Source: Chiloscyllium plagiosum (lineage: Eukaryota). Taken from it: a stretch of DNA of 39,548 nucleotides. The stretch is from contig NC_057752.1 in NCBI RefSeq assembly GCF_004010195.1, forward strand, positions 15,895,348 through 15,934,895, in the 5' to 3' direction. A program made the position numbers and the translations under genes. The notes under the pieces are model-generated. The model did not search any database. It worked only from the letters and a program-made list of their open reading frames with translations, and was not told where the DNA came from. Position 1 is the first letter of the stretch; every line of letters begins with the position of its first letter. Below are positions 4,608-29,927 of the stretch, piece after piece.

Positions 4608-4684
4608 TATTGAGTTGGGTGACTAGCCATGATTAAAGTGGAGAGCTGAATGGCCTACTCCTGCTCTTATTTTCTATGTTTTTA

Positions 4685-6356: not shown

Positions 6357-7391
6357 TAGTTCTAATTGTTGCCCGCATTCTTTCTTCCTCAGTGAATCAT
6401 TTTGTTTTCCTCTGCACTCCTCTCCAATGGTAAGTACAGTAATCTCCCAACTCAACCAGCTTGTCTATACCCTTTCTTCTGCTCCCCACTATCCTCCTCA
6501 CACTTTACAATACTTAAGTTTTTTTTATTTATCAGTTTTTTAAAACTTCAAAATCTCATCTTGCAGACCCCAGCTGAATCCCACAAAACCCAAATTTGTG
6601 TCGACTTAAAAAGATCACTTAAGACAATTATCAGTACCTTCCTAGTTCCTTCTGATCAAGCAGTAGCCACTCATCTCTGCCTCTTCTGTGGCACTTCTCT
6701 TGATTTTAATAGTGGCCTGGAATCCCCCACTCTGGTTTCAACCTCCCTCCAGTTTTCCCCCAGTAGAGCTCTAAAGGAGGACAACCTCCTGAATGTGAAT
6801 CTACTTTTACATTCCTGGCATGGTTTGTTTATTCCCCCACAAACATTTCTACTTCCCTGGTCATAGTGCCTGTGAGTCATTCCCTCCCTACAGGAGGCAC
6901 GCTGGGGAAATGCAGCAACACCAGCCAATCACTAAACATCAGACAGTAACGTCTGTCAGGAAGGAAAAGTAAAAGCAGCCTGTCAACTGTGGCAGCGAGA
7001 GAGAGATCACAAGCATTGTTACTGATTCTGGCAACCATCCTGATGAAGGTTTTAATTTCCAACCATGGAATCTGTAAAGGAGCTGCCCGTGGCCACCCAC
7101 GTGGGCCGTCAAGTTACAGGTAAAACCAGGGACGGGCCAGAGAGTCGGGAGAGAGAGAGAGATAACCGTGTTGTAGACACTAAACGCCCTCTCTTTCTGT
7201 TTCATATTCTGTACTAGTTCCAATAAAACCTTTCAGTTTTATTAAGGACAGAAAATATTGTAAATTAGCAACAAATCCATCAATGCCTGTAGCAGTAACA
7301 AGTTGATGTCTAAAGAGAAGGCAGTTTGATATTTTAGCAGAATTTACTTTCTGTTTAGAAGTCTCCAGTTGGCACTGCTTAGATTTTGTGC

Positions 7392-7473
7392 TGATGAAGG
7401 AGCGGTGCTCCGAAAGTTAGTGTGCTTCCAATTAAACCTGTTGGACTATTACCTGGTGTTGTGTAATTTTTAA
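7392..7473 (+). mobile_element. 82-bp solo PLE pLTR fragment (family 2) beginning at hammerhead core
   Basis: CTGATGA-A-GGAGC ggt GCTCC-GAAA at 7391-7415; perfect 14-bp TSD cttagattttgtgc at 7378-7391 and 7474-7487. Confidence 0.9.
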
Positions 7474-7547
7474 CTTAGATTTTGTGCAACCTTTTCATTC
7501 TCGCTTTCTTGCTGAACCTCCATGTTAAAGGTGCTTCCATTAACGAA

Positions 7548-7745
7548 CAAAGTCAAAAGTCCCACAATGCCAGGTTATATTCGAACTGTATATTTAAAAT
7601 CACAATCTTTTAGAACACTGCTCCTTCACATGACAAAGGGGCAGTGCCCCGAAACCTTGCGATTTTAAATAAATCTGTTGGACTATAACCTGATACTTTT
7701 GACTTTGTCCACCCTAGTTCAACACTGGTACCTCCACATCATTGA
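7548..7745. mobile_element. Degenerate head-to-head inverted pair of family-2 pLTRs
   Basis: Left arm aaagtcaaaagt..ccaggttata..ctgctccttca mirrors right arm aaggggcagtgccccgaaa..tataacctg..acttttgacttt. Confidence 0.75.
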
Positions 7746-7911
7746 TTTACAGAAACCAGACGAGAGACTGTTCAACTCACGCTGTTCCTGTTCTCTGTGC
7801 TCCATACAAATGAAACTCATGTCCCCACCCGTACTCGGATCTCATTCTCCCCTTTCCTTCTCCTGCTATTATACACAGAAGTAGAAGTAGGCCATTCAGG
7901 CAATCACAAGT

Positions 7912-8045
7912 AGAGTATGGGTCACTGGACCCCAAACATTAACTTGGATTTCTCTGCACAGACACTGTCTGACCTGCTGAGCTTTACAGCAACTTCTGTT
8001 TTTGTTTCTGATTTGCAGCATCTGCAGTTCTTTAAGTTTTTATTC
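7912..8045 (+). mobile_element. Old PLE pLTR-like fragment (third family)
   Basis: GGGTC actg GACCC cAAAC hairpin followed by ctgacctgctgag..cagcatctgcag shared with other pLTRs. Confidence 0.55.
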
Positions 8046-8059
8046 ATTGTTATCATCCT

Positions 8060-8182
8060 GATGATTCCTGATGAAGGGCTTTTGCCCAAAATGTCAATTT
8101 TCCTGCTCTCGGATGCTGCCTGACCTGTTGTGCTTTTCCAGCACCACTCTAATCTCCAGCATCTGCAGGACCCTCTTTCACA
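8060..8182 (+). mobile_element. Solo PLE pLTR (family 1) with degenerate hammerhead
   Basis: cCTGATGAaGGGCttttGCCCaaaa; TSD att(g/a)ttatcatcct at 8046-8059 and 8183-8196 (13/14). Confidence 0.85.
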
Positions 8183-8291
8183 ATTATTATCATCCTCAAC
8201 TCCACTTTCCAGTAAACCCTAGGTTCCCATAGTGATTAAAAATCTATCTCAGCCTTCAATATACTTAATGACCCAGCCTCAATAGCCCTCT

Positions 8292-8482
8292 TCAGTACTG
8301 AGGGAGAGCCTGTGGGAGTGGGTCTGTGGGAGTGCTGCATTGTGTTGGAGGGTCAGTACTGGTGGAATATTGAACTGGTAGAGGGTCCTGAATTTCAAAT
8401 GGCTATATTAAACAGAGACCCTTTATGATTACCAGTATCTGTAAGAGATCCTATAGTACTATTTTGAAAAAGAGCAGGGTAT
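8292..8482 (+). mobile_element. Degenerate Deu-domain SINE fragment (AmnSINE1/SacSINE1-like)
   Basis: cagtactgagggag..gagtgctgcattg..agatcctatagtactattttgaaaaagagcaggg resembles the Deu core as recalled from memory. Confidence 0.5.
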
Positions 8483-8483
8483 T

Positions 8484-9545
8484 TAGAACCCAGAACATAG
8501 ACCATTCCAGCGCAGTACAGGTCCTTCGGTCCTTATGTCTGAAGCCCATCTAACCTACACTATTCCATTTTCATCCACATGTTTATCCAATGACCTTTTA
8601 AATGCCCTTTAAGCTGCCGAGTCTACTACTGTTGCAGGCAGTGCATTCCACACCCCTACTACTCCCTGAGTAAAGAAACTACCTCTGACATCTGTTCTAT
8701 ATCTATCACCCATCAATTTAAAGCTATGTCCTTTTGTGCTAACCATCACTATCCCAGGAAAAAAGGTTCTCACTGTTTACCCTATCTAATCCTCTGATTA
8801 TCTTATTTGTCTCAATTAAATCACCTCTCAATCTTTTTTCTAATAAAAACAGCCTGGAGTCCATCAGCCTTTCCTTACAAGACCATCCCTCCAGACCAGG
8901 CAACATACTAGTAAATCACCTCTGCACCATTTCCAAAGCTTCCACATCCTTCCTATAATGCAGTGAATAGAATTTTATGTAATACTCTAAGTATGTCTGC
9001 AAATGGGTTTTTTACAGCTGCAGCATGACCTCATGGTTCTGAAACTCAATCCCTCTACCAATAAAAGCTAGCACACTGTGTGCCTTCTTAACAACCCTAT
9101 CAACCTGGGTGGCAACTTTCAGGGATCTACGTACATGGACACAGATCTCTCTGCTCAGCTACACTACCAAGAATCTAACCATTAGCCCCAGTACTCTTTA
9201 TTCCAGTTGCTCCTTCCAAAGTGAATCACCTCATTTTTCCACATTAAACTCCATTTGCTACCTCTCAACCCAGCTCTGCAGCTCATCTATATCCCTCCGT
9301 AACCTGCAACATCCTTTGGCACTATCCACAACTCCACCGACCTTAGCGTCATCTGCAAAGTTACTAACCCATCCTTCTACACCTCAGCCAGGTCATATAT
9401 AAAAATGGTCACAAAACAGATCCTTATGGTATACCAGTAATAACTGAGCTCCAGGATGAATATTTCCCATCAGCCACCACCCTGTCTTCTTTCTGCTAGA
9501 ATATTTCTGATCCAAACCGCCAAATCACCCTCAATCGCAATTCTT
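8484..9545 (-). mobile_element. CR1 LINE 3' portion
   Basis: (ttcta)n-type tail at 8484-8500; RT (FADD) region near 9350. Confidence 0.85.
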
Positions 9546-9553
9546 CCCAGTGT

Positions 9554-10605
9554 TAGAGTCATAGAATCAGAGAGATGTACAGCATGGAAACAGACACTTC
9601 GGTCCAACCCGTCCATGCCGACCAGATATCCCAACCCAATCTAGTCCCACCTGCCAGCACCCAGCCCATATCCCTCCAAACCCTTCCTATTCATATACCC
9701 ATCCAAATGCCTCTTAAATGTTGCAATTGTACTAGCCTCCTCCACATCCTCTGGCAGCTCATTCCATACATGTACCACCCTCTGCATGGAAAAAGTTGCC
9801 CCATAGCTCTCTTTTATATCTTTCCCCTCTCGCCCTAAACGTATGCCCTCTAGTTCTGGACTTCCTGATCCCAGGGAAAAGACTTTGTCTATTTATCCTA
9901 TCCATGCCCCTCATAATTTTGTAANNNNNNNNNNNNNNNNNNNNNNNNNNNNNNNNNNNNNNNNNNNNNNNNNNNNNNNNNNNNNNNNNNNNNNNNNNNN
10001 NNNNNNNNNNNNNNNNNNNNNNNNNNNNNNNNNNNNNNNNNNNNNNNNNNNNNNNNNNNNNNNNNNNNNNNNNNNNNNNNNNNNNNNNNNNNNNNNNNNN
10101 NNNNNNNNNNNNNNNNNNNNNNNNNNNNNNNNNNNNNNNNNNNNNNNNNNNNNNNNNNNNNNNNNNNNNNNNNNNNNNNNNNNNNNNNNNNNNNNNNNNN
10201 NNNNNNATCCTGTTGTAGTCTGAGGTAACCCTCTTCGCTGTCCACTATACCTCCAATTTTGGTGTCATCTGCAAACTTACTAACTATACCTCTTATGCTC
10301 GCATCCAAATCATTTATGTAAATGACGAAAGGTAGTGGACTCAGCACCGATTCTTGTGGCACTCCACTGGTCACAGGCTCCCAGTCTGAAAAACAACCCT
10401 CCACCACCACCCTCTGTCTTCTACCTTTGAGCCAGTTCTGTATCCAAATGGCTAGTTCTCCCTGTATTCCATGAGATCTAACCCTTGCTAATCAGTCTCC
10501 CATGGGGAACCTTGTTGAACTCCTTACTGAAGTCCATATAGATCACATCTACTGCTCTGCCCTCATCAATCTTCTTTGTTATTTCTTCAAAAAACTCAAT
10601 CAATG
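9554..10605 (-). mobile_element. CR1 LINE 3' portion spanning assembly gap
   Basis: [30 protein letters not shown]; tail nearly matches 2156-2500. Confidence 0.9.
9925..10206. other. Assembly gap (282 N)
   Basis: N run. Confidence 1.
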
Positions 10606-10667
10606 TTCTAGGAAGTCACAACCTCCTGAGCAACATCTCTCTAAATGAATGATCAGGACTTTTGTTT

Positions 10668-13600
10668 AAAAATTCATTTTGTGGGCTATGGGCATTGCTG
10701 GCTGGCCAGCATTGATAGCCCATCCCTATTTGCCCTTGAGAAGGTGGTGCTGAGCTGCCTTCTTGAATCGCCGCAGTCCACCTGCTGTGGGTTGACCCAC
10801 AATGCCATGAGGGAGAGAATTCCAGGATTTTAACCCAGCGACAGTGAAGGAATGGCAATATATTTCCAAGTCAGGATAGTTTTGTGGCTTGCAGGGAAGC
10901 TTGAAGGTGGTGGTATTCCCATAAATCTTTTGCCTGGTCCTTCTAGGTGGAAGAGGTTGTGGGTCTGGAAGGTGCTGCCTGAGGACCTTTGATGAATTTC
11001 TGCAGTGTATCTCGGAGATAATACACACTGCAGCGACTGAGTGTCAGTGGTGGAGGAAGTGAATGCTTATGAGTGTAGTGTCAATCAAACGGGGGCTGCT
11101 TTATTTTGGATGGTGTCAAGTGTTGTTGGGGTTGCACTCATCTTGGCAAATGGGAATATTCCATCCCCTGACTTGAGCCGTGTGGATGGTGGACTGGCTT
11201 TGAGGAATCAAGAGGTAAGTTACTTGCCGCAGTATTCCTTGCTTCTGACCTGATCTTGTTGCCACTGTATACGTGATGAGTCCAATTGAGTTTCTGCTCA
11301 ATGATAACCCCCACGATGTTGATAGTGCAGGAATTCAGTGATGGTAACATCATTGAATGCTGAGGGGCGGTGGTTAGAATGTCTCTTATTTGTGATAGTC
11401 ATAGCTTGGCATTTGTGTGGCGTGAATGTTACTTGACACTTGTCAGCCCAAGCCTGGATATTGTCCTGATCTTGCTCCATTTGAACATGGACTGCTTCAG
11501 TATCTGAGGGGTCATGAATAATAATGAACATTGTGCACACATCCCCCCTTCTGACCTTACGATGGAAGGTCATTGATGAAGCAGCTGAAGATGGTTGGGC
11601 CGAGGACAGTCCCCTGAGGAACTCCTGCAGAGATGGCCTGGAGCTGAAATGACTGACTTCTAACAACCACAGCCATCTTCCAATGTGTCAGGTATGACTT
11701 TAACCACTAGCGAGTTCCCCTTCCCCGATTACTCTTTGATTCCAGTTTTGCTAGGGCTCCAATTGCCACAGTTGTTCAAATGCAGCCTTAATGTCAAGAG
11801 CAGTCACTCTCACCTCCCCTCTGCAATTCAGCTGTTTTTGTCAGTATTTGAACTAAGGTGATAATAAGGTCTGGAGCTGAGTGACCCTGGCAAACCCCAA
11901 ACTGGGCGTCACTGAGCAGGTTATTGTTGACCTGGTGCTGCTTGATAGCGCTGTTCATGACCTCTTCCATCACTTTACTGATGATCGAGAGTAGACTGAT
12001 GGGGCGGTAATTGGCCAGGTTGGATCTGTCCTGCTTTTTATGGACAAGACATACCTGGGCAGTTTTCTCCATTGTTTGGTAGATACCAATGTTGTAACTG
12101 TATTAGAAAAGTTTGGCTAGGGGAGCAGCAAGTTCTGGAGCACATGTCTTCAGTTCTATTGCCGGAATGTTGTCAGGGCTCATTGCCTTTGCATTATTCA
12201 GTGTCAAATAACAAAGAACATTCCAGTTTAGGAACAGGCCCTTCAGCGCTCCAAGCCTGTGCCGATCCAGATCCTCTATCTAAACCTGCTGCCTATTTTC
12301 TAAGGATCTGTATCCCTCTGCTCCCTGCCCATTCATGTATCAGTCTAGATACATCTTAAATGACACTATTATTCCCACCCCTACCACTTCCGCTGGCATC
12401 GTGTTCCAGGCACCCACCACCCTCTGTGTAAAGAATTTTCCACGTATATCTCCCCTAACATTTCCCCTCTCGTGACCCCACTCTGAGAAAAAGCTTCTTG
12501 CTATCCACCCTGTCTGCACCTCTCATGATTTTGTCTGCCTCAATCAAGTCCCCCCTCAACCTCCTCCTTTCCAATGAAAATAATCCTAATCTATTCAATC
12601 TCTCCTCATAGCTAGCGCCTTCCATACCAGGCAACATCCTGGTGAACTTCCTCTGCACCCTCTCCAAAGCTTCCACATCCTTTTGGTAATGTGGCAACCA
12701 GAATTGTACGCAGTATTCCAAATGCAGCTGAACCAAAGTCTTATACAATTGTAACATGACCTGTCAACTCTTGTACTCAATAACCCGCTGAATGAAGGAA
12801 AGCATGCCATATGCCTTCTTCACCACTTTACTGACTTGCGTTGCCACCTTCAGGGAACAATGGACCTGAACACTCAGATCTTCTGTACATCAATTTTCCC
12901 TAGTATTTTTCCATTTACTGTATAGCTTGCTCTGGAATTGCATCTTTCAAAATGCATCACCTCACATTTGTCCGGATTGAACTCCATCTGCCATTTCTCT
13001 GTCCAACTCTCAAATCTATCTGTATCCTGCTGTATTCTCTGACAGCCCCTTCACTATCTGCTGCTCCACCAATCTTAGTGTCATCTGCAAACTTGCTAAT
13101 GAGACAAACTACAACCTTCCTCCAGATCATTTATGTATATCACAAACAACAATGGTCCCAGCATAGATCCCTGTGGAACATCACTGGTCACAGGTCTCCA
13201 TTTTGAGAAATCCCCTTCCACTACTACTCTCTGTCTCCTGTTGTCCAGCCAGTTCTCTATCCATCTAGCTAGAACACCCTAGATCCCATGCGACTTCACC
13301 TTCATCATCAGCCTATCATGTGGAATCTTATCAAACGCCTTACTAAAGTCCATGTATATAACATCTACATCCCTTTCCTCAAGCAACTTTGTCACCTCTT
13401 CAAAGAATTCTATTAGGTTTGTAAGACATGACCTTCCCGGCACAAACCATCACTGATGAGCCCATTTTCTTCCAAATGGGTATATATCCTATCCCTCAGT
13501 ATTTTCTCCAGCAGCTTCCATACCACTGATGGCAGGCTCACCGGTCTGTAATTACCTGGATTATCCCTACCACCCTTCTTAAACAAGGGGACACCATTAG

Positions 13601-14250
13601 CAATTCTCCAGTCCTCTGGGACTTCCCCGTGTTCAAGGATGCTGCAAAGATATCTTTTAAAGCCCCAGCTATGTCCTCTCTCACTTCCTCAGTAACCTGG
13701 GATAGATCCCATCCGGATCTGGGGACTTGTCCACCTTAATGCCTGTTCAAATACACAACACTCCTCCCTCCTTATGCTGACTTGACCTAGAATAATCAAA
13801 GATCCATCCCTAATCTCAACATCCGCCATGTCCCTCTCCTTGGTGAATATCGATGCTAAGTACTCATTAATAATCTCACCCATTTTCTCTGACTCCACAT
13901 GTATCTTTCCTCCTTTGTCCTTGAGTGAGTCAACCCTTTCCCTAGTTACTGTCTTGCTCTAACTGCTTCTTGATATCATGTGGAGTAAATTGAATTGGCT
14001 GAAGACTGGTATCTGTGATACTGGGGACCACTGGAGGAGGTTAAGATGGATCGTTTACTTGGCCCTTCTGGCTGAAGATTGCTGTACAAGCATCAGTGTT
14101 ATCTTTTGCACTGATGTGCTGAGCTCTTCCATCATTGAGGATAGGGATATTTGTGGAGCCTCCTCCAGTGCATTGCTTAATTGTCCACCACTATTCACAG
14201 CTGGATGCGACAGCACTGCAGAGCTGAGGTTAGATCCATTGGTTATGGGG
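10668..14250 (-). mobile_element. Family-B CR1/L2-group LINE, split by CR1 insertion at ~12205-13960
   Basis: VHKKQDRSNLANYRPISLLSIISKVME; IQAWADKCQVTFTPHKCQ; KSWNSLP..FKKAAQHHLL. Family-B sequence resumes at ~13961, matching 3740-3800. Confidence 0.8.
12205..13960 (-). mobile_element. CR1 LINE ORF2 remnant nested in family-B LINE
   Basis: NEYLASIFTKE..; LYKTLVQLHLEYCVQFW..LERVQRKFTRMLPG; many frameshifts. Confidence 0.9.
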
Positions 14251-14454
14251 GGATGGATTTATCACAGTGTTACTTGCAGGAGAAATGCTACTTGCATGAA
14301 TTGATTGGCTGCTGCGATTTCTACAGTGATTGTACTTCAGAAGTGCATGAATAATATATAGTGCTTCAAGGTGTCTTTGTGAAAAAGACCAAAAAACAGT
14401 GCCATTTGCCATTTTCTATCCTGATCCATATCCCTTTGCAACTTCCTTATTGAG

Positions 14455-14898
14455 TAATACAACACAGGAACAGACCCTTTGATCCAACTTGTCCACATTG
14501 ACCAGATATCACAATCTGACCGAGTGCCATTTGCCAGCATTTGACCTTCTAAACTCCACTCCAACTAGATGCCTTTTAAATGCCTCCACCACATCCTTTG
14601 GCAGCTTGTTGCACACATGCACCACCCTCTACGTGAAAAAGTTACCCCTCATGTCCTTAAACCTATGTCCTCTAGCTTTGGACACCACCACCTGAGCAAA
14701 AAGACCTCAGCTATTCACCCTATTCATGTCCCCCTCATGATTTTATAAACCTCTATAAGGTCACTCCCTCAGTATCTGACATTCCAGGCAAAAACAGCCC
14801 CAGGCTTTTGAACCTCTCCCTGCAGCTCAAACACTTCAGTCCCGGCAACATCCTTGTAAATCCTTTCTGTGCCTTTTCACAGCATCCTTCCTATGGGA
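14455..14898 (-). mobile_element. CR1 3' fragment
   Basis: Homologous to 2160-2670. Confidence 0.85.
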
Positions 14899-15052
14899 CT
14901 AAGAATAAGGACCAGATGTAAGGGGTTAGACATGAAGATCACTTAGAAAAGAAGGTAATGCAACTAGTTTCTGATACTTGCTAGTCTTTTTTAACAGTAA
15001 GTATGGATTAAGCATGTTTAAAGATTTTCTTGCCTGACAATTCTACTGGCCT

Positions 15053-15143
15053 GGAGAAAGTGAGGTCTGCAGATGCTGGAGATCAAAGTTGAAACTTTAT
15101 TGCTGGAACAGCACAGCAGGTCAGGCAGCATCCAGGGAACAGG
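15053..15143 (-). mobile_element. 91-bp solo PLE pLTR tip (young family-1 subfamily)
   Basis: Reverse complement of the 3' part of 22501-22626; perfect 13-bp TSD attctactggcct at 15040-15052 and 15144-15156. Confidence 0.92.
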
Positions 15144-15800
15144 ATTCTACTGGCCTTTAAAGCAATGGAATGCAATGAACACTGATTAAGTTTTGCCTAA
15201 TCAGGAAAGCCATTTTAGCATGGAGAGTTCCACATCGTAACTTTGGTCAACAAAATACAAACTATTAAATTTGGAGCTATTCATAGACTTATTCCTTAGA
15301 CACAAATAAAGTAATACAATAATCTCAATAGCAAACAAGAGTCCTCTGTATCATTGGAAAAACAATGGTCAGCTACTATGTGGCATTTCAGCAACATAGT
15401 GTGATAAGCACAGAAATATGCATCATGCAAGCAAAGGTGAGAACTATATAAAATCCCTAAAATATGCCAAATTAAGTCAACTGATAGAGAATATCCAGAA
15501 CATGGGTTTATGTTGAACTAGCATATATGTTTCTACGAGGAGATTACACTTATCATTTAAAATTACAGGATTAAAGTCTCGATAAAGTTGTATACATGCA
15601 CCTGATAAGGATCGAAAACCTCAAAAAGCCTCTGTCTCAAAATCTGGCTACACCATGAGCAATCTGACAAGTCTTGCTCCATCGTCCCACAACATATTTC
15701 ACCATCATGAGATCAAAATAATTATTTATTTGGCCATCTATTGTCATATCATTTGCAGATGTGTTTATTATTTTTATTACACCCAAATTATTGACAGATA

Positions 15801-15894
15801 ATGATGAATAGCAGGTCTCAAAAAAGACGCGTGACTATAAACTTCGAGGAAGCTCTGAACTCTTTAGTTTGCTTACTTCCCCCATATTCTGTAT
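15801..15894 (+). CDS. Probable first coding exon of RBR-like E3 ligase gene (MMNSRSQKRRVTINFEEALNSLVCLLPPYSV+T)
   Basis: Lies in non-repetitive DNA. Acceptor-like ttattgacag ends at 15797, ATG at 15801, open frame, GTATGT donor at 15895 gives phase 1, matching the next exon (T|AC = Tyr). No recognisable motif in this exon. Confidence 0.5.
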
Positions 15895-16270
15895 GTATGT
15901 CTCATCTTTAATTTCATCCTGATCCTTAGCCATACTCTTTTTGAAAGTGTAATTAGTGTCTGCACCCATCCTGTTCAATTGCCACATTCTGAAACTGTGG
16001 TTTTCCTGAGACATTGTGTGAATATGATCAGTATTGTAATCTCATTGATTTTAGTTCCATCCCTACTCTGAGGGAAAATGCTTCCTTCGATTGGGTGACG
16101 AGGAATTTCAACCAAAAATATTGTAACTCGGGTCGTACTGCAAGAGATTCAGTCTGGCTGGATACTGCATTGTAATGAATGTTGAAGATAAAAGGAGCAC
16201 AGTCAGCAGTGGTGCTGTTTACAGAACCGGACAGCTGTCAAAATGATTGTTTGAGTGTCCAGTAGCAAAG

Positions 16271-16366
16271 ATGGAAATGTATTGCTGGAAAAGCGCAGCA
16301 GGTCAGGCAGCATCTAGGGAACAGGAGAATCGACGTTTCGGGCATTAGCCCTTCTTCAGGAAACCC
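16271..16366 (-). mobile_element. Solo PLE pLTR with intact hammerhead core
   Basis: Minus strand CTGAAGA-A-GGGC taat GCCC-GAAACGTC; TSD tgtcca(g/a)tagcaaag at 16256-16270 and 16367-16381. Confidence 0.88.
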
Positions 16367-16435
16367 TGTCCAATAGCAAAGGGTGAACATAGCTCACATA
16401 TGTTAGAATAAAGAACAAAAAGGAAAAACAGACAA

Positions 16436-17100
16436 ACATATAAACATACAAACAAGGGGCATGAGCAGACCATTCCCTTTGAGCTTGCTCCACCGTTCAA
16501 TAAGATGATGGCTGATTTCATTATAACCTCAAATCCACCATCCTGTCTACCCTGAAATGATGGAATGCTCTTGATTAATAAAAGTCTATCCCTCTCTGTC
16601 TTAAAAAAAATTCCAGGACTCTGTCTTCACCATTAAGTCACACAGCACGGAAACAGGCCTGTCAGTCCAACTTGTTCAAGCTGACCAGGTTTTCGAACTA
16701 GTCCTAATTGCCTGCATTTAGCCCATATCCCTCTAAACCTTTCCTATCCGCGTATCTGTCTCTTCAAAGCTGTAATTGTACCATCCTCTATGACTTTCTC
16801 TGGCTGCTCATTCCATATACACACCACCCTCTGTGTGAAAAATTGCCCCTCAGGCCCCTTTTAAATCTTTCCCCTATCTCTTCTAGTTTTGGACAATCCC
16901 ACCCTCGGGAAAAGGCCTTGATTATTTATCCTATCCATGCCCTTCATGAGTTTATAATTGTCTATAAGGTCACCCCCTTATCCTCCTATGCTCCAAGGAA
17001 AACCACCTTTTCAGAGAGGAATTCAAAGACTCAAGACACTCAGGAAAAAAAATTCACCTCTCTATTTTAAACGTGTGACTCCTGGTTTTTAACCAGTGAC
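16436..17100 (-). mobile_element. CR1 3' fragments (older tail interrupted by younger CR1 at ~16636-17003)
   Basis: Similarity to other CR1 tails in the window. Confidence 0.7.
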
Positions 17101-17394
17101 ACCTAGTTTTCCCTGTTTAAATGAACAATATGGAGTCTGTCATTTTGACAGTTAATATAGCAGAGGAATGCAACAAAAATAACAGAAGATAAAGTAATCA
17201 ACTTGTGTAATAGATATTTAAATGTAAATTAATCTCATTCAAAGTACGTGTTGGGGCTGCTCAATATTTTCAGACCGCCTGAATGAAATGAATTGACAAG
17301 CATGATGCTCCTGCTGTCTTTCCTTTCCATGCATACAAACTCATGGCTTTATCTTGCAGCATGACCGATTAACACAATGATTAGTGAAACTTAA

Positions 17395-19593: not shown

Positions 19594-19683
19594 TTTAGGA
19601 TATCTGGTTAGCATGGGTTGGACTAAAGGGCCTGTTTCCATGGTGTACATCTCTTTGACTTAATTCACTGACTCTGTCTCCAG

Positions 19684-19781
19684 ACACTAGACCCTGCAGC
19701 AGCCTCCGAGTCAAGGCTTCATGTGGACATATCGCAGAACCCCTGAGTCTAAAAGCCTGGGCTAAGTCTCGGATAGACACG
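19684..19781 (+). CDS. RBR-like E3 ligase exon, degenerate RING1 N-part (TRPCSSLRVKASCGHIAEPLSLKAWAKSRIDT)
   Basis: Acceptor ctctgtctccag, donor GTGAGT at 19782, 98 bp, phase 1 to 0. SCGH...W motif. Not in the ORF track. Confidence 0.85.
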
Positions 19782-19919
19782 GTGAGTTTGTCTTTTTATG
19801 TCTTTGCTGTGCTGTTTACACACCCATGATCTCTGGTATTGACCTGTCTCACAAGTTCTCCCCTTGGACACTGGTCAGTTCCTCAATTCAATGACCAAAA
19901 GGCCAGGCTGAGTCTTTTT

Positions 19920-20254
19920 TTTAATATTCACTCATGGGATTTGGCATCACAGGTTGAACCAGCATTTATTGCCCATCCCTAAGAGTCAACCACATTACCT
20001 TGGTCTGGAGTCATATATAGGCCAGATCAGGTAAGGATGCAGATTTTCTTTCTTAAAGGACATTAGCGAGCCAGAAGAGATTTTCCCAACAATCAATATT
20101 GGCTTCATGGTCACTATTAATTCCAAATAGTTTTAAACTGAATTCAAATTCTACCATCTGCCATGGCAGGATTTGAACCCAAACCCCCAGAACATTACCT
20201 GGGTGTCTGTATTAATAGACCAGTGATACATACCAGTAGGTCATTACTCCCCAT
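19920..20254 (-). mobile_element. tRNA-derived SINE with family-B LINE-type tail; a second partial copy at 20262-20348 and 21122-21158
   Basis: Minus-strand head with B-box ggttcaaatcc; tail ccagcatttattgcccatccct shared with family-B LINE end (~10706-10727). Confidence 0.7.
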
Positions 20255-20348
20255 AGGGCAGTGAAGAATCAATCACATTGCTGTAGGCCAGATCAGATAA
20301 GGATGGCAGTTTCTCTTCCTAAAGGAAATTGGTAAACCAGATGGGTTT

Positions 20349-21121
20349 TATGGAGTTCAACCTGGATAAATGCAAAGTGATGCATTTTGGAAGGTCGAAC
20401 TCAAATGCTGAATATAGGATTAAAGACAGAATTCTTGGCAGTGTGGAGAAACAGAAGGATCTTGGTTTTCAAGTTCCACCCAAGTGGATAGGGTTGTTAA
20501 GAAAGCATATGGTGTTTTGGCTTTCATTAACAGGGGAATCGATTTTAAGAGCCATGAGGTTTTGCTGCAGCTCTACAAGTCCCTGGTGAGACTACACTTG
20601 GAATATTGTGCCCAGTTCTGGTCGCCCTACTATAGGAAAGATAGAGGCTTTGGACAGGGTACAAAGAAGATTTACCAGGATACTGCCTGGACTGGAGGGC
20701 TTGCCTTGTGAAGAGAGGTTGACTAAGTTCGGACGTTTCTCTCTGGAGAGGAGGAAGAGAGGAGACCTGATTGAGGTATACAAGATAATGAGTGGAATAG
20801 ATAGAGTCAATAGCCAGAGACAATTCTCCAGGGCAGGATTGACGGGCACAAAGAGTTATAGTTTTAAGATATTAGGAGAAAGGCATAGAGGGGATATCAG
20901 AGGTAGAGAGTTGTGAATGCATGGAATACGTTGCCAGCGGTGGTGGTGGAAGCAGAGTCATTAGGGACATTCAAGGGAGTGCTGGACATGCACATGGACA
21001 GCAGTGCATTGAGGGGTGCGTAGGTTAAGTTATTTTGTTTTACATTAGAATTAATCTTTGGTACAACATCATGAGCCAAAGGACCTGTTTTGTGCTGTAT
21101 TTTTCTATGTTCTATGTTCTA
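20349..21121 (+). mobile_element. CR1 3' portion, same subfamily as 30937-32945
   Basis: MEFNLDKCKVMHFGRSNSNAEY..; (ttctatg)n tail. Confidence 0.92.
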
Positions 21122-21159
21122 CCTGACAATCAGCAATGGTTTCATGGTCATTATCACCT

Positions 21160-21404
21160 CGGGCAACTGTGTGTTTGGAGGTTGCACATTCTCCCTGTGT
21201 CTGCATGGATTTTCTCCGGGTGCTCCAGTTTCCTCCCACAGTCCAAAGATGTTCAGGGTAGGGTGGGGTGACCATGCTTAATTGCCCATAGTATTTAGGT
21301 TAGATACAGTAGTCAGGGGAATTGGTCTGGGTGGGATACTCTTTGGAGAGTCAGTGTGGACTTGTTGGGCCGAATGGCCTGTTTCCACACTGTAGCGATT
21401 CTAT
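21160..21404 (+). mobile_element. 5'-truncated HE1-like V-SINE
   Basis: V-domain and tail, no head. Confidence 0.85.
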
Positions 21405-21620
21405 GAAATAAATTCTTATTTCCAGAATACTGTCCCTTGTCTGAGTTTGAATGGGATATGAAATTGCAATTACTGTGTAAAACCTCATTCCCAGACTAGC
21501 TTTCTTCAAAACCTGCCTCACCTGGAATTGCAAGTAGGCTGCCTCCCACCTGACCATTCAAATGTCATCCTATTATGTGTTCTTTATTCCGGCAGTGACA
21601 CACAGATTGTCTCTCCTCAG

Positions 21621-21770
21621 GGAATCCATTCTTTTCCATGTCAGACCTGTAAGAAGGAGTGGGTCTGGCAGGAGGTGTGCAAATTAGCACTCTTCACAGA
21701 AGAGGAGAGGGATTGTTATGAGAAAAAATTGGTGGAACTAACCAAAGATGACACTGCTTCCTACAAAAAG
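21621..21770 (+). CDS. RBR-like E3 ligase exon, RING1 C-part and linker (GIHSFPCQTCKKEWVWQEVCKLALFTEEERDCYEKKLVELTKDDTASYKK)
   Basis: Acceptor gtctctcctcag, donor AAG|GTAATG at 21771, 150 bp, phase 0 to 0. CxxC followed by the helical linker typical before an IBR domain. Confidence 0.9.
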
Positions 21771-22420
21771 GTAATGGGCAAAATACAATGAGAGTTGGAC
21801 AGAAAGATAAAGGGTTTGAATGGTCTAATGAGCTAAAGTAGCGATATATCACATTCAAGAGTATTAACGTCAATGAAGATGCATGTTTATGCAAGCTTTT
21901 TTAAAAAAGTATAGCCCATCGTAGCCTTTGTTTGAAGGCTGGTTAGGAGTAACTAGAAAGCTGTGAAATGAGAACCTCCTATTGCATGTTTGTTGCTAAT
22001 AGGTTTATAGTCCGGTGGCTCTGGGAGACCAGGATGTAATGACACACAGCACTTACAGCATCAGAACACACCAGGACAGCTAGCTACTTGCTCAGAGACC
22101 GAGCGAGTGGCATTTTCACATGAATTGCACTGAGGTCTGCAAAATAACTCCAGAGGCTGGTATCTTATCATTAAGTCACCCTTTATTTATATGTGGAAAG
22201 TCCTCGACACTGATTCAGCTCCCTCAGACGCAGCTCTCAGAATGAACAGGATGTCTGACACTCCTGTTCTTATTTTTTTTAAATTTATTAACCAGTACAA
22301 ATTACAAACAAACATTTTACATTAACAGCTGTATACAAGAAACAGCAATTTACGGGGGAAAGGAGTGGCAAAACCAGACCCCAAACCCCACTGTACAAGC
22401 TGTTCACAGGGAAAGGAGAA

Positions 22421-22625
22421 ACTTTATTGCTGGAACAGCACAGCAGGTCAGGCAGCATCCAGGGAACAGGAGATTCGACGTTTCGGGCACAGGCCCTTCT
22501 CCTGAAGAAGGGCCTGTGCCCGAAACGTCGAATCTCCTGTTCCCTGGATGCTGCCTGACCTGCTGTGCTGTTCCAGCAATAAAGTTTCAACTTTGATCTC
22601 CAGCATCTGCAGACCTCACTTTCTC
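22421..22625. mobile_element. Palindromic solo PLE pLTR insertion (inverted + direct copy)
   Basis: 83-bp perfect inverted arms at 22418-22500 and 22506-22588; perfect 16-bp TSD cacagggaaaggagaa at 22405-22420 and 22626-22641. Confidence 0.93.
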
Positions 22626-24037
22626 CACAGGGAAAGGAGAACAAACCTCAAATCCTACCTTACATTAATCAAGAAGAAAACAGTAAACGCCATCACATAC
22701 AGACAGATCGATAAAACTGAACAAGAAAACAGTGCGTATAACACAGATACCCCTGGCAACCCAGCAAGCCACCCGTCCCTCCCACCTTCCTTCCACTCAA
22801 AGACAGACCACACCTACGCCCTTTTCGGCTCTCAGTCCACCCTGACAGATCTTCCGGCCACCTCTAGGACAGCCTGTCCTGTTTTCCCACTACTCCCCAG
22901 CAATTAGGATGGCATACCCACCTTCCAGCTTCTCTAACCACCCTTCCGTGCCTCCAAGCCACCTCTAGGACAGTCTGTCCTGGTAACTGCCCAGGTCACA
23001 GCGCTGAGGACAACCTACCTGCCTTCCAGCTCTTGGCCTGCCTGTACTATCTGGCTCTCACTCACCCTGATGCACCATCCGGCCTGTGGACTGCCCTGAC
23101 ACATCTTCCGGCCACCTCTTGGACAGCCCGTCCCCTTCCCCTGGGACGCCAGTATACAGGGCAGCCAACAAGCAGTCCGAATCTCAGCCTGCCCCTACGC
23201 ACCTTCTGGCTCTCAGCCGCTCTGAGACACCTTCCGACCACCTCTAGGACAGCCCATTCTTGGGACGACAACACTCAGAATAGCCTACTCACCTTCCAGC
23301 TTTCAGGACAGCTTACCCATCTTCTGGTTCACAGGACTGCCTACCCACCCTCCAGCTTTCAGGATGACCTTTGAGTCTCCCAGCTCAAAGTAAGGGACTA
23401 GGGACACACAAGACAGTGCAGGTGATAAACCCAACAAGCAACAAGATAGAGTCAATTACCAACAAACAGAGTCCATTTTCAGAAACAATCCTCTTTAAGA
23501 TGCAAAGTCCATTCCCAGGAACAGAGTCCACTCCAGTATACAAAATGCATTGTCAGAAATAGAGGCCACTGCCAAAAGCAGAGTCCACTCCTGAAGGCAG
23601 CAAATGCACACCCCATAGCACACTCATATAGGTGTTCAGTCTCGACAAAGGCCTGGTCCATCCATACAGATCCAGGCCCACTTACAGGAACATAGCACAT
23701 TGTAAAGGTGCAGTTAACTCACAGAGGTCTGGTCCACTCTCAAAGGCAGCAGATGATCACCTCTTAGCACACACAGGTATTCAGTCTTTACAGAGGGCTA
23801 GTCCACCCAGAGGGTCAGGCCCACCCACAGAGGACCAGGCCTACCCATGGAGAAACAGTTAATCTGGAAAGGTGCTTTTTCTCACAGGGGCTCAATCCCA
23901 ACACCAAAAAAATGAAAACACATGCAAAAAAAATAAACAGAGTGTAAAGGCTAAACCCTGCCACAAAAATCAGCATTGTACATTTCTCAAAATAAAAGAA
24001 AGGAGTACACACAGATTGTAGCCAGACAGTGAAACAA

Positions 24038-24353
24038 GGGTGGCACGGTGGCACAGTGGTTAGCACTGCTGCCTCACAGCGCCTGAGACCCGGGTTCAAT
24101 TCCCGCCTCAGGCAACTGTCTGTGTGGAGTTTGCACATTCCCCCCGTGTCTGCGTGGATTTCCTCTGGGTGCTCCAGTCTCCTCCCAAAGTCCAAAGATG
24201 TGCTGGTTAGGTGGATTGGCCACACTAAATTGCCCGTAGTGTTAGGTGAAGGGGTAAATGCAGGGGAATGGGTCTGGGTGGGTTGGTCTTCGGAGGGTCG
24301 GTGTGGACTCGTTGGACCGAAGGGCCTGTTTCCACATTGTAAGTAATCTAATC
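24038..24353 (+). mobile_element. HE1-like V-SINE, full length
   Basis: tRNA head, V-domain, taatc tail; absent from the paralogous site at ~27805. Confidence 0.93.
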
Positions 24354-26074
24354 AAAATCATCTGAAATACATCTGAAACACATTGACTGTGTAAATCAGC
24401 CAGTTTCGAGATCAGTCCTCAATAAAAAGGAATACCAATGAACAAACCGGTTATATAATTCAGACAGCTTAAGAATCAGGTTTCCCCCTAAAAATACAGA
24501 AACCAATGGCAACAGTACAAGCTGGATGTGGTCAGCCAGCTCAGAGCCAGTCCCCTGACACAAACAGAGAGTCTTTCACTGATCCAGCTCCCAGAATGAA
24601 CAGGGTGTCTGACAGTCCTGTTTATTCGATTTTGTTAACCAGTACAAATTACAAACAAACGTTTTACATAACAGCTGTATACAAGAAACAGCAATTTATG
24701 GGGGAAAGGGGCAGCAAAGCCAGACCCCCAATCCCACTGTACAAGCTGTTCACAGGGAAACAAGGATGAACCTCGAATCACACCTTACATTAAACAAGAA
24801 GGAAACAGTAAACACCATCACGTACAGACAGATTGATAAACCAAACAATAAGACAGTGCTAATAACACACACCCAGCAAGCCACCTGTCCCTCCCACCTT
24901 CCAGCTACTCAAAGGCAGCCCACGCCTCACTCCCTCCAGTTCTTGGTCCACCCCATGTCCCTTCCAGCTCTCCGTCCGCCCTGACACATCTATATCTCCG
25001 TTTCCCCCCCCGCCACTGACAACAGGACAGCCTACCACTTTCCAGCTTCCTTCACTGCCCTTTCACACCTGCCAGCCACCTCTAGGACAGCCTGACCCCT
25101 TCCTTGGGACGATGGTACACAGAGCAGCCCACTAGCCTTCTGGATCTCAGCCTGCCTCTATATGCCTTTTGGCTCACAGCTGCTCTAACACACCTTCTGG
25201 CCATTTCTAGGACAGCCTGCCTGGGGTGACGATGCTGAGGACGGCCTACCCACCTTCTGGCTCTCGGTCTGCCCTTAAGTACCATCTAGTTCTTGCCCAC
25301 CCTGATGCACCATCCGGCTTGTGGACTGCCCCAACACCGATTCCAGCCACCTCTAGGACAGCCTGTCCTCTTCCCTGGCCAATAGTGCACAGGGCAGCCC
25401 ACAAGCCATCTGATCTCAGCCTGCCCCTACACACCTTCTGGCTCTCGGCTGCTCTGACACACCTTCCGGCCACCTCTAGGACAGCCCATCCCAATTACCC
25501 CTTCTCGGGACGACAGCGCTCAGAATGACCTACCGACTCTTGGGGCGACTGGCATCGGGGTGGCCTACCCATCTTCTGGCTTTCAGGTCAGCCAACTTAC
25601 CTTCAGGTTCACACAACAGCCTACCCACCCTCCAGCTCTCAGGGTGACAGCTTTCAGGATGACCTATGAGCCTCCCAGCTCACAGTAAGGGACACACAAG
25701 ACAGTGCAAAAGGCAACAAGATAGAGTCAATTACCAACAAACAAAGTCCTTTCTGGTGCACAGAGTCCATTACTGTAAACAGTTCTCTTCAGAACACAGA
25801 ATCAATTCCCAGGAGCACAGTATACAAAATGCGTTGTCAGAAATAAGACTCCACTCCAACATGCAGAGCCAAAAACAGAGTCCACTCCTAAAGGCAGCAA
25901 ATGCTCACCTCCCAGCGCATACACAGGTGTTCAGTGTTTACAAAAGCCTAGTCCATCCACAAATGGGCCAGGCCTACCCTCAGAGGAACAGTTTATGTGG
26001 AAAGGTGCATTATTTCACAGAGCCTCAGTCCAAACACCAAACAGAAAGTGAAAACACATGCAAAAAATAAAGAA

Positions 26075-26518
26075 GGAGAAAGTGAGGACTGCAGATGCTG
26101 GAGACCAGAGTTGAAAAATGTGTTGCTGGAAAAACACAGCAGGCCAGGCAGCATCCGAGGAGCAGGAGAATCGACGTTTCGGGCATAACCCCTTCTTCAG
26201 GAATGAGGCTGATGTGCCAGGCGGGCTGAGATAAAAGGTAGGGAGGAGGGAATTTGGGGGAGGGGCGCTGGGAATACAATAGGTGGAAGGAGGTGAGGGT
26301 GAGTGTGACAGGCCGGAGAGGGGGTGAGGCGGAGAGGTCGGGAAGAAGATTGCAGGTCAAGAGGGCGGTGCTGCATCTGGGGATTGGGACTGAGATACGG
26401 TGGGAGGAGGGGCAATGAGGAAGCTGGAGAAATCTACATTCCTGAAACGTCGATTCTCCTGCTCCTCGGATGATGCCTGGCCTGCTGCGCCTTTCCAGCA
26501 CCACACTTTTCAACTCTC
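26075..26518 (-). mobile_element. PLE 3' end (family 1) with partial inverted pLTR at ~26441-26518
   Basis: Homologous to 3942-4300; hammerhead motif on minus strand at ~26165-26200. Confidence 0.88.
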
Positions 26519-26934
26519 ATCCAAATGATACAATAAATGGTAAATCTTCAGGTCGTGTGGTCTGAACTCTATGGAACCCCAAAAGTTGCCAACCATGAAC
26601 GAAACAGCTATCCAATCTCTCTGCAGTTTGTTGGCTCACCAGCCCTCTATCTAGGAGAATGACCTCCTCCCAAACCCATGTCCTCTTATTTTACAGCTTA
26701 ATATTTTGTGCAGCGTTAAATCAGTCCCTTTTCAAAGCTCAGGTACTTTGCTTCTCCAGGATCTCTATTGTCTACTCTCTTAAAAGATGTGACAAGCAAA
26801 GTAGACAATGGAATTGGCTGTGTAATTGGCTTCTGTTGCAGACTCTTTCCGGTGTTCTATGCAAAAAATAAGATCATCCTTCATTTTGTAAACTCTAATG
26901 CATATTGTATCAAACTGATCATCCTTTCCTTATA

Positions 26935-27007
26935 NNNNNNNNNNNNNNNNNNNNNNNNNNNNNNNNNNNNNNNNNNNNNNNNNNNNNNNNNNNNNNNNNN
27001 NNNNNNN
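26935..27007. other. Assembly gap (73 N)
   Basis: N run. Confidence 1.
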
Positions 27008-27760
27008 TCAGCGGGTCGTTAGTTCATGGAATGCCCTGCCAGTAACAGTGGTGGACTCTCCCTCTTTATGGGCATTTAAGAGGGCATTGGATAGGTATAT
27101 GGAGGATAGTGGGTTAGTGTAGTTTAGGTGGGCTTGGATCGGCGCAACATCGAGGGCCCAAGGGCCTGTACTGCGCTGTATTCTTCTATGTTCTATGTTC
27201 TATGTTCTACAGAGTCTGTGCTTCTGTGATTGTATGGCTGTGGAAGGTCAATCATTCAGTAGCTCAAGATAGGAATTGATGAGTTTCTGAAGAAGATCTT
27301 ATCACTGTGTATATGAGTGAACTTGTAATATCTTCTGAAAATACGCCAATGGCAAAATTAAGAGAAAAAGGTGCAGCTTACTTACATAGAACATAGAACA
27401 TAGAACATTACAGCGCAGTACAGGCCCTTGGGCCCTCGATGTTGCGCCGATCCAAGCCCACCTTAACTACACTAACCCACTATCCTCCATATACCTATCC
27501 AATGCCCTCTTAAATGCCCATAAAGATGGAGAGTCCACCACTGTTACTGGCAGGGCATTCCATGAGTCGTTAGTTCATGGAATGCCCTGCCAGTAACAGT
27601 GGTGGACTCTCCCTCTTTATGGGCATTTAAGAGGGCATTGGATAGGTATATGGAGGATAGTGGGTTAGTGTAGTTTAGGTAGGCTTGGATCGGCGCAACA
27701 TCGAGGGCCCAAGGGCCTGTACTGCGCTGTATTCTTCTATGTTCTATGTTCTATGTTCTA
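27008..27760. mobile_element. Three near-identical young CR1 3' ends (+27008-27209, -27386-27565, +27566-27760)
   Basis: Direct comparison shows 1 to a few differences; (ttctatg)n tails. Confidence 0.9.
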
Positions 27761-28195
27761 AAAGAGAATGGAGTAACAGACAGGCTGTAACCAGCCAGTG
27801 AAACAACAGTTCCCTAATGAGAACTGAAATACACCTGTAACACATTGACTGTATAAATCAGGCAGTTTAGAAATAAGTCCTGAATAAAAAAGGAATACCA
27901 GTTAACAAACTGGCTTGGTAGAATCAGCCAATTCAGGAATCAGGTTTCTCCAAACAATTGGAAACCGACAGTAACACGCACTAGATGTGGCTGGCCAGCC
28001 AGCTCAGAGTCGATCCCCTTACACAAGTAGAGGGTCCTTGACACTGATCCAGTTCCCTCAGAGTCAGCTCTCGGAGTGAACAGGATGTCTGACACTTCTG
28101 TTCTTATATCAGCTAGGGCTCCCTGATTAACAACCCCAATCAGGGAACTCACATTCTATGAATTCCATCTGGCTGACCTTGTCACAATCACTACA

Positions 28196-29150
28196 CCATC
28201 CCCCCCCCCCGAGTCCGAGGACACAGGCTAATTATTTTTGTTATAGTAACTCCTCGGCCATTTTAGCACCAGGTCAGGTTCCTTTGACTCTGCCTCAGGT
28301 ACGGGCGGTGTACAGTAACCCACCTCTCACGCCCAGAGCGCCTCAGAAGAAATTCATCCTCTTCTTCATGAAAAGTCCTGCACAGTCGACAGGGTACTGA
28401 GTCCAGAGTTTACTGTTCCATTCCCAAGAACAGAGGGGAGCTGCTGGCATAAATGTTTGTCCTGGTTGCTACTCTCGGCACTGCATCACCAATACAGCTA
28501 ATCCTGGCCACCAGACATAACTTCTGGCAAACACCTTCATTTTGGAGACCCCTGGATGGCTCTGGTGGAGTTCAGCCAGTACGTAGCGGTGACTTTTAAC
28601 TCAGGACATTCGCTCTTGATCCTTATCACAATATGCCATCCTCCTACTGTGATCTGGTCTCTCCAGGCCTGAAAAGGTTTCCATTCTGGTTTTGAATGCC
28701 TTTTGGTTTCCCCCATCGCCACCAAATATTTCAGTTTTGCCAGGACCGGAACCTTCTGCATCCAAAATCTGATATTGTCAGCTACAACTGGCAGTGTGTC
28801 CAGAATATTTAAAACCATTGCGAACTCTTCCAGTGGCGGTACCACCAGTGGTGTATCTACCAACGGGAATGCATCTGCATTTGCTACTTGGCCACTTCAT
28901 TGGTGTTCCAACTTGTAATTTTATGCATTTAGTATTAGAGCACACCACTGAGTTCCACCTGAAGCTATGGGCTGCACTGCCTTGTCTTCTTTAATTAAAC
29001 CTAACAGGGATTTGTGGTCCATTATGATTATCAGTTTACTTCCATGAAGGTATTGGTGGAACTTCCTGACTCCAAATTTTTGACCGCCAACCCTTCCTTC
29101 TTGATTGGGACATATTTAAGCTTTGCATGAGCCAAAGTCCTCATGCATAT
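28196..29150 (-). mobile_element. Gypsy (Ty3) internal remnant: RNase H, integrase Zn-binding region, PPT
   Basis: EGLAV..FGVRKFHQYLHG..DHKSL..ANADAF; ELHQSHPGVSKM..ARSYVWWPGL; PPT G11ATGG at 28196-28210. Confidence 0.85.
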
Positions 29151-29581
29151 GAGTCCTGTTGCAGCTGTACAGAACACTGGTGAGGCCACTTTTGGAGTTC
29201 TAGGCATCCTGCTATAGGAAGGGTATTATCAAATTGGAAAGGGTGGAGAAAATATTTATAAAGAAGTTACCAGGACTACAGGGTTTGAATTTTAAGGAGA
29301 AACTGGATAGGCTGGCTCTTCTTTCCCTCGAGAGTAGGAGGTTGAGGGGTGACCTTTTGGAGGTTTTTAATATTATGACGGACGTAGATAAGGTGAATAG
29401 CAAAGTGGAACTGAAAACTAGGAGACATAATTTTAAAATGGGATGAGAAATATTTAAAAGGGACCTGAGAGGCAAGGTTTTCACACAGAGGATGGTGCTT
29501 ATGTAGCAATATTGCCAGAGGAAGTTTTAGATGCAGGGACACTTACAACATTGAAAAAACATTTGGACAGGTACATGAAGA

Positions 29582-29621
29582 AGGTTCCTGAAGAAGGGCC
29601 TGTGCCCGAAACGTCGAATCT
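29582..29621 (+). ncRNA. Minimal type I hammerhead ribozyme motif (PLE type)
   Basis: AGGTTC-CTGAAGA-A-GGGC ctgt GCCC-GAAACGTC-GAATCT: 6-bp stem I, 4-bp stem II, palindromic ACGT, GUC triplet at 29613-29615. Activity untested. Confidence 0.8.
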
Positions 29622-29714
29622 CCTGTTCCCTGGATGCTGCCTGACCTGCTGTGCTGTTCCAGCAATAAAGTTTCAACTTTGATCTCCAGCATCTGCAGAC
29701 CTCACTTTCTCCAT
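29582..29714 (+). mobile_element. 133-bp solo PLE pLTR (young subfamily)
   Basis: 29587-29713 appears identical to 22501-22627; 11-bp TSD gtacatgaaga at 29571-29581 and 29715-29725. Confidence 0.93.
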
Positions 29715-29927
29715 GTACATGAAGAGGAAAGGTTCAAAAGGAGGTGGGACAAACGCAGGCAAGTGGAACTAGTTTAAGTTTAAGAAACCCGGTCAGCATG
29801 GACGAGTTGGGCTGAGGGGTCTATTTCTATGCTGTGTGACTTTATGAACTGTTGACCTAGAAGTCACCCTGCAACAGCCAAAACCCCCATCCTCTCTGTA
29901 TGAAATTGTCCAATTCCCTTATCATAA

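Follow-up and report, generated by a model that had tools for sequence, protein, structure and literature searches.

Short hammerhead-bearing insertions in the shark Chiloscyllium plagiosum as probable run-off products of two Penelope-like element families

Six short non-coding insertions with pseudo-long terminal repeat (pLTR) sequence of Penelope-like elements (PLEs) were analysed in a 39,548-nucleotide stretch of the Chiloscyllium plagiosum genome (assembly GCF_004010195.1, contig NC_057752.1, positions 15,895,348 to 15,934,895 of the forward strand; hereafter the window, to which plain coordinates refer), together with their relatives across the whole assembly. The inserts belong to two PLE families, the one at 7392 to F2 and the other five to family 1. 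They are probably short insertion products of two ordinary hammerhead-bearing PLE families, their 5' ends being set when reverse transcriptase (RT), having started internally in the front pLTR, runs off the 5' end of a capped RNA. The stubs are accordingly most likely copies of the first 90 to 130 letters of such an RNA, which makes them a clue to the PLE insertion route. The original prediction had taken them for a ribozyme-delimited non-autonomous family mobilised by PLE machinery or, alternatively, for products of RT stopping at the ribozyme fold; the mobilisation by PLE machinery was borne out, and ribozyme cleavage appears at most minor in setting the insert ends.

Where the 5' ends fall

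Positions on the pLTR are numbered with the C of the CUGANGA core as +1 and the preceding base as 0, which places the predicted hammerhead cut after +28. Exact matches in the 3.56 Gb assembly to probe words of subfamily A, the family 1 subfamily of the insertion at 29582, fell from 23,082 (+59 to +82) through 20,931 (+29 to +50) and 15,508 (+1 to +20) to 5,928 (-9 to +13), with successive losses of 0.003, 0.011 and 0.096 per nucleotide (nt), and 74% of the subfamily A arms reaching +29 continue through the cut site to the core. Individual ends were read in two samples. The young-arm sample consists of the first 100 subfamily A arms on contig C1, which collapse to 31 pairs and 43 single arms, 74 insertions in all. 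The random sample comprises 100 unselected 10-kb stretches (1,000,000 bases, 41,074 of them N), in which 163 of 251 raw family 1 matches were kept, the 88 removed being tail-only or reference-flank-only matches, another repeat with the central motif, or ends beside N or a locus edge. The 5'-end histograms exclude a genome search whose query selected for its own 5' end; for subfamily C, where several alignment estimates of the start stop early at reference mismatches, an earlier locus walk was used alongside.

Among the young arms, 54 of the 100 ends lie at -6 to +3 and 15 at -12 or beyond, with none at -11 to -7, two at +27 to +31 and none at +29 itself; 17 of the 21 single arms confirmed by a target-site duplication (TSD) end at -5 to +1. 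The random sample has 68 of its 163 family 1 ends at -6 to +3 (6.8 per nt), against a background of about 1 end per nt at +4 to +41 and of 0.05-0.1 per nt upstream of -12, while 12 of the 26 F2 ends in it fall at -12 to +2; its extrapolation gives on the order of 600,000 arms in the genome. The 5'-end peak is genuine; its upstream edge is sharp, and the cut site is about 30 nt away. The expectation that 5' ends gather at the ribozyme thus holds genome-wide, well beyond what chance would give, and the smooth truncation decay that would have spoken against it was not seen. The end at 15143, which had been counted in the cluster as lying 6 nt after the cleavage site, drops out of it, since it maps to +34/+35 in the background zone and is an ordinary truncation. 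As a separate observation, +25 is the starting position of four of the 100 young arms (L281, L308, L326, L334); it is situated at the palindromic helix III, three bases short of the predicted cut.

Tails, paired arms and parent elements

The 3' ends of the young arms are bimodal, at about +90 and at +125 to +127, and the 36 nt between +90 and +126 are termed here the tail. Each of the 31 pairs, which join two arms head to head, has exactly one tail; 26 of them are flanked by a 12-19 bp TSD, and 26 distinct junction types occur. Of the single arms 23 are tailed and 20 untailed, and the random sample adds 37 pairs of the same appearance. The variety of junctions indicates that the palindrome is made anew at each insertion. 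One recurrent junction is a 3-base overlap (GAA with TTC), at which the trimmed arm may be either tailed or untailed; in three pairs with this 3-nt overlap the trimmed arm is the tailed one and its partner is untailed. Fold-back self-priming of the first cDNA was considered as the source of the pairs and rejected, because it cannot add a tail that is absent from the template arm, and two RNA-templated cDNAs are therefore needed. In 48 pairs with a readable loop-II allele, four differ between the arms and none combines two different common alleles, which fits one RNA per event.

For the Anolis Poseidon element PAc, internal initiation at two sites with extension of both strands has been described in vitro, RNA beyond the tail being needed and ribozyme cleavage not (PMC11167929). 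The two 3' ends in the shark, being the bounds of the known 30-40 bp tail, are taken as the equivalent of these two internal RT start sites. An overlap of 1-4 nt between target and element is common at the start sites, and the targets have a G-rich context before the TSD with no preference for ATT. Polyadenylation was discarded as the cause of the +90 end, since AATAAA (+77 to +82) is found only in subfamily A and the +90 end is common to all subfamilies. At L258:1545, which corresponds to about +92 of the element, a poly(A) run follows closely behind the untailed end in 30 reads of a poly(A) library; given that AATAAA, a copy may provide a host transcript with a polyadenylation signal.

The parent elements were traced through longer copies. 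At locus L154 the RT motifs read through to a GIY-YIG stretch with two Cys inside its core, giving one open reading frame (ORF) in which RT is followed by a C-terminal endonuclease; its RT is 60% identical to the RT remnant in the window, and its GIY-YIG match in Pfam (E 7e-4) lies below the curated cut-off. A Pfam search with the RT and endonuclease fragments of the window alone gave no match. The linker between RT and endonuclease reads C-x4-C-x2-C in locus L158, and a CX2-5CxxC linker has been assigned to the Neptune and Nematis clades (PMC8557442). By these sequence features the parent is an endonuclease-bearing (EN+) PLE of the Neptune/Nematis type, the vertebrate host favouring Neptune over Nematis. 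In real copies the pLTR runs past the tail into the ORF, the junction being spanned by 328 exact genome matches (subfamilies A/B), and the first ATG stands about 40 nt beyond the tail. In a set of 30 long copies each subfamily has ORF-side relatives, and ATTC precedes the core.

Both families carry a predicted minimal type I hammerhead with the core boxes, helix II, a palindromic helix III and a short helix I, assigned by eye against the published minimal hammerhead ribozyme (HHR) consensus. Pairing is kept in 96% for helix II and 67% for helix I, with no compensatory change in a 12-row set, one row of which was mis-specified; an Rfam scan of the window gave no match to a hammerhead family, only chance matches to the palindrome. 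Another abundant repeat, found at loci L031, L046, L047, L050, L055, L063, L064 and L066, shares only the central +39 to +78 motif and is probably a third PLE family.

Proposed run-off from a capped RNA and the rival readings

The proposed route would begin with an RNA that starts at about -3, at the A of an initiator-like TCATTCC, so that its first bases would form the 5' strand of helix I. RT would then initiate internally at +90 or +126, the 3' ends being observed as fixed and their role as start sites being suggested by the Anolis analogy. The target is cut on both strands with a stagger, seen as the TSDs of 12-19 bp, and both nicks would prime, one per site, with both cDNAs running toward -3, as the anatomy of the pairs suggests; joining through 1-3 nt of microhomology or filler would give a head-to-head pair with one tail, and failure of one cDNA a single arm, tailed or untailed. 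Copies reaching further upstream would derive from pLTRs inside longer or tandem transcripts.

Several features point to such an RNA. The A at -3 is part of TCATTCC, a match to the initiator consensus YYANWYY. PLE transcripts are known from published work to begin within the pLTR. The base before arms starting exactly at -3 is G in 50 of the first 100 matches listed (of 1,426; a hand count), as compared with 26% expected (p 3e-7), and untemplated Gs at full-length 5' ends of L1 and SVA have been attributed to the cap (PMC3287187). Leaving out two recurrent junctions makes the G count 50 of 83. One of these is shared by 13 of the 100 listed ends (L363, L374-L377, at about 1511): in it a jump of the opposite arm, apparently via a repeated CCTGA, leads from about +53 to the RNA start and leaves out the whole hammerhead; the second junction type recurs four times. 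Among 30 loci inspected, a lone G stands between TSD and element in one (L368). The RNA beyond the tail that is needed in vitro is found only at the pLTR-ORF junction, which fits initiation in the front pLTR. In a poly(A) single-cell RNA run most reads reflected transcription through embedded copies (the share entering unlike sequence was 96% and 84%), with no pile-up of starts or ends; this speaks neither for nor against a -3 start, or for or against the abundant linear and circular monomer RNA of retrozymes. A splice acceptor was rejected as the cause of the end, there being no AG at -3 and no peak at the candidate acceptors near -17 and -25.

A number of results weigh against run-off from a capped RNA. 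No 5' end of such an RNA came out of the poly(A) reads, and the start at about -3 is read from the insertion ends. Some 26% of the arms in subfamily A run beyond -9, and ORF-side units enter the 5' pLTR with no pile-up at -3, mostly stopping inside the pLTR. In 30 subfamily C loci, one start lies at -7, one upstream unit at -3 and about ten at +83 to +119, while the 14 internal jump junctions from subfamily A divide into five at -6 to +5 and nine at -17 to -63. The ends of F2 are more spread (-12 to +2), with a weak match to the initiator. The G excess is partly confounded by target ends that are G-rich nearby; the G belongs to the TSD, as its last base, in two of the 30 loci, and a first look at a small set of nine arms gave no clear excess. 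The agreement of alleles between paired arms would also be expected if the subfamilies had been active at different times.

The arms passing -9, a quarter of the total, together with the ORF-side units, imply that upstream-extended RNAs, too, often serve as templates. A halt of RT on a longer RNA, at a bound protein or an upstream structure, stays a rival to run-off, if an unlikely one. Such longer templates exist, and ORF-side units do not accumulate at -3; set against this are the upstream edge, sharp at the level of single bases and common to subfamilies with different upstream sequence, and the G excess at the -3 ends. The hammerhead fold is a poor candidate for the obstacle. It is weak, the pLTR folding no better than its shuffles (z 0.04), and, as RT should move 3' to 5' along the RNA, a stop would be expected at the 3' foot of the fold (about +33), while the ends lie on its 5' side, which RT reaches only once the fold is copied; the earlier suggestion that the fold halts RT is thus not supported. 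Trimming of longer products by the element's own GIY-YIG endonuclease, acting on the nascent cDNA duplex at the ATT just before the core, is improbable: PAc prefers 5'-ATT-3' beside its ORF-pLTR junction (PMC11167929), and ATT occupies -3 to -1 in 30 of 30 long family 1 copies, but the targets show the G-rich context and no ATT preference, many F2 copies without ATT still end at -12 to +2, and the extra G would go unexplained.

Self-cleavage of the hammerhead, which would supply a ribozyme-delimited mini-RNA as template, is very improbable as the source of the ends. The minimal type I hammerhead in both families and the arms that start at +29 to +31 (6 of 163 in the random sample, and also L265, L227 and L229) agree with it. 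Cleavage predicts ends at +29, however, where not one young arm begins; most arms pass the cut, the peak lies about 30 nt upstream, the density at +27 to +31 (1.2 per nt) is similar to that of neighbouring positions, and in vitro HHR mutants leave PAc insertion unaffected, with no PAc reads ending at the cut site (PMC11167929). Self-cleavage is refuted as the main cause, although it may account for a few percent of ends, and the idea of ribozyme-delimited inserts is not supported. Also improbable is an independent non-autonomous mini-element of a SINE- or retrozyme-like kind, with solos as its own master copies. The very high copy number (the 23,082 exact arms in one subfamily) and the short tandem units present in the genome, each some 190-350 bp long and carrying one hammerhead, are in its favour. 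On the other side, there are no solo-specific alleles, the solos are without the sequence beyond the tail required for PAc activity (PMC11167929), element sequence downstream of the tail is common to none of 318 arms, pair junctions vary from copy to copy and tandem junctions from locus to locus, and the flanks upstream of -3 differ, each matching its own TSD. The pLTR at 29582 is, moreover, 88/88 and 125/126 identical to copies that retain upstream 3' untranslated region (UTR), and ORF-linked long copies with the same pLTR mean that this sample holds no solo-specific family, contrary to what had been supposed. The diagnostic alleles, absent from the autonomous partner, that would mark a SINE-like family were not found; nor do the six inserts have the two or more consecutive tandem hammerheads of a retrozyme, being single arms or one inverted pair, or a unit bounded by cleavage sites, as the absence of +29 starts from the 100 young arms indicates.

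Tandem arrays do occur elsewhere in the genome, with units of about 190-280 bp (190-350 bp overall), at L230:1546-2821, at L243/L244 and L261-L263 (anchors at 1501), and at G000:C8:24157648-24158508. Their unit consists of the pLTR and the first part of the ORF, rejoined just upstream of the core; the junctions differ between units and loci and look like repeated template jumps within one insertion, and the arrays satisfy the tandem-hammerhead definition of retrozymes. Run-off from a capped RNA may be extended to a broader scheme, which is plausible without being probable: one complex would prime the two target nicks in an obligatory asymmetric twin priming, at two internal sites that are fixed on a capped RNA beginning exactly with the hammerhead, most of the several hundred thousand insertions would be run-off copies, and an RT jump back to the ORF start would build hammerhead arrays of 190-350 bp in one step, as an origin of animal retrozymes.

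The window and comparison with known systems

All six insertions have their own flanking direct repeats, as originally described; the TSDs measure 11-16 bp, and in a control of 297 trials at random window positions an exact repeat of at least 13 bp arose in 3 and of at least 11 bp in 4. Five are solo pLTRs as stated, while the sixth, at 22421, is a head-to-head pair, and in five of the six an arm starts between -3 and +2. The F2 arm at 7392..7473 (plus strand) runs from the core (+1/+2) to the inner 3' end with no tail, between exact 14-bp TSDs (7378-7391/7474-7487); adjoining it at 7547-7708 is a decayed inverted-repeat element with an F2-like pLTR, probably an older relative. The arm at 8060..8182 (plus strand), of an older family 1 subfamily, starts at -3 (8064) after GATG, a G standing directly before that start, and is tailed, with a 14-bp TSD (8046-8059/8183-8196) having one mismatch and 10 exact bases. 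On the minus strand, the arm at 15053..15143, of young subfamily A, extends from the tail end to +34/+35 without the core (TSD 15040-15052/15144-15156, 13 bp exact), and that at 16271..16366, of subfamily B, starts at -2 (16362) plus a short filler and has no tail (TSD 16256-16270/16367-16381, 15 bp with one mismatch, 8 exact). The subfamily A pair at 22421..22625 joins an untailed minus arm (22421-22500, +5 to +84) to a plus arm (22501-22625) that reaches from 0 to the tail end at about +125, within an exact 16-bp TSD (22405-22420/22626-22641). The subfamily A arm at 29582..29714 (plus strand) has an AGG filler and then runs from -2 (29585) to +125 (29712), with its core C at 29588, the predicted cut after 29615 and an exact 11-bp TSD (29571-29581/29715-29725).

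Longer copies in the window include a 5'-truncated family 1 copy at 3942..4654 (minus strand; GIY-YIG remnant, 3' UTR and tailed pLTR), a 5'-truncated F2 copy at 5385..6275 (minus strand; endonuclease C-terminus, 3' UTR and pLTR), a family 1 copy with an adjoining opposite arm at 26075..26521 (3' UTR copy 26075-26434 on the minus strand, arm 26438-26521 on the plus strand), and a decayed longer family 1 copy at 35600..37790 (plus strand, left edge approximate; RT and GIY-YIG remnants, pLTR and a core at 37710). Other sequence comprises a 543-aa open RT frame of a long interspersed element (LINE) at 31243-32874, with an RVT_1 match, which we take to be CR1-like, and pLTR insertions often land within such LINE remnants; a host exon at 34526-35050 with IBR domains (RBR E3 ligase-like) and an acidic run at its end; and, at 27015-27760 beside an N gap, repeats of about 180-370 bp in inverted and direct orientation, nearly perfect and unrelated to the pLTR, which may reflect an artefact of assembly.

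Earlier work has described inverted as well as solo pLTRs with a tail and TSD, and also dispersed single minimal hammerheads. The inserts are not a new element class, and the feature is a mechanistic refinement of a known one. The fixed 5' end, the G mark and the strict one-tail rule were not found in the open literature, closed-access papers, Repbase entries and supplements, where such ends may already be described, lying outside the search; by title or start of abstract, the search returned no PLE-mechanism paper on twin priming, and it returned no shark PLE paper. How PLEs come by their inverted pLTRs and one-sided tails is treated as an unsettled question in published PLE work, and a genome with tens of thousands of near-identical insertions makes their ends readable at base resolution. 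These insertions predict the transcript start, one RT start site per strand and a ribozyme that does not set the ends.

Published EN+ PLE insertions (PMC3846280, PMC8557442) are alike in their head-to-head inverted pLTRs, 30-40 bp tail at one end, TSDs, heavy 5' truncation, solo pLTRs and Inr-like pLTR motif, but in the shark short products dominate, with one base-resolved 5' end and a strict one-tail rule; the inversions have there been explained by self-priming on an antisense template, whereas the shark junctions better fit two-strand priming. The published minimal PLE hammerhead has in common with that of the shark the CUGANGA core, an additional base ahead of helix II, a G-C first pair, a loopless palindromic helix III and a short helix I, and thousands of single motifs and opposite-strand pairs have been ascribed to truncated PLEs; the role proposed for it is cleavage and circularisation, while the shark insertion ends do not follow the cut. 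PAc (PMC11167929) likewise has two internal RT starts at the bounds of the tail, cuts and extends both DNA strands and can dispense with HHR cleavage, but it is a Poseidon element whose ORF begins in the ribozyme, whereas the shark element has the Neptune/Nematis-type Cys linker and its ATG past the tail, and the short target overlap is common at the shark start sites. Non-LTR retrozymes (PMC7229834; bioRxiv 10.64898/2026.07.22.740005) share the type I hammerhead, the PLE pLTR origin and the non-coding nature, but are tandem units with at least two ribozymes that are processed to circles, in contrast to the six inserts with at most one ribozyme per strand. L1 resembles the shark insertions in its microhomology joints and in the extra G at full-length 5' ends, the cap G being taken from PMC3287187. 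The comparison extends to priming. Both target strands prime cDNA in L1 twin priming, as proposed for the shark, but in L1 the second priming site varies and the two pieces derive from different regions of the RNA, whereas the shark insertions have two fixed sites and their two cDNAs span one and the same stretch.

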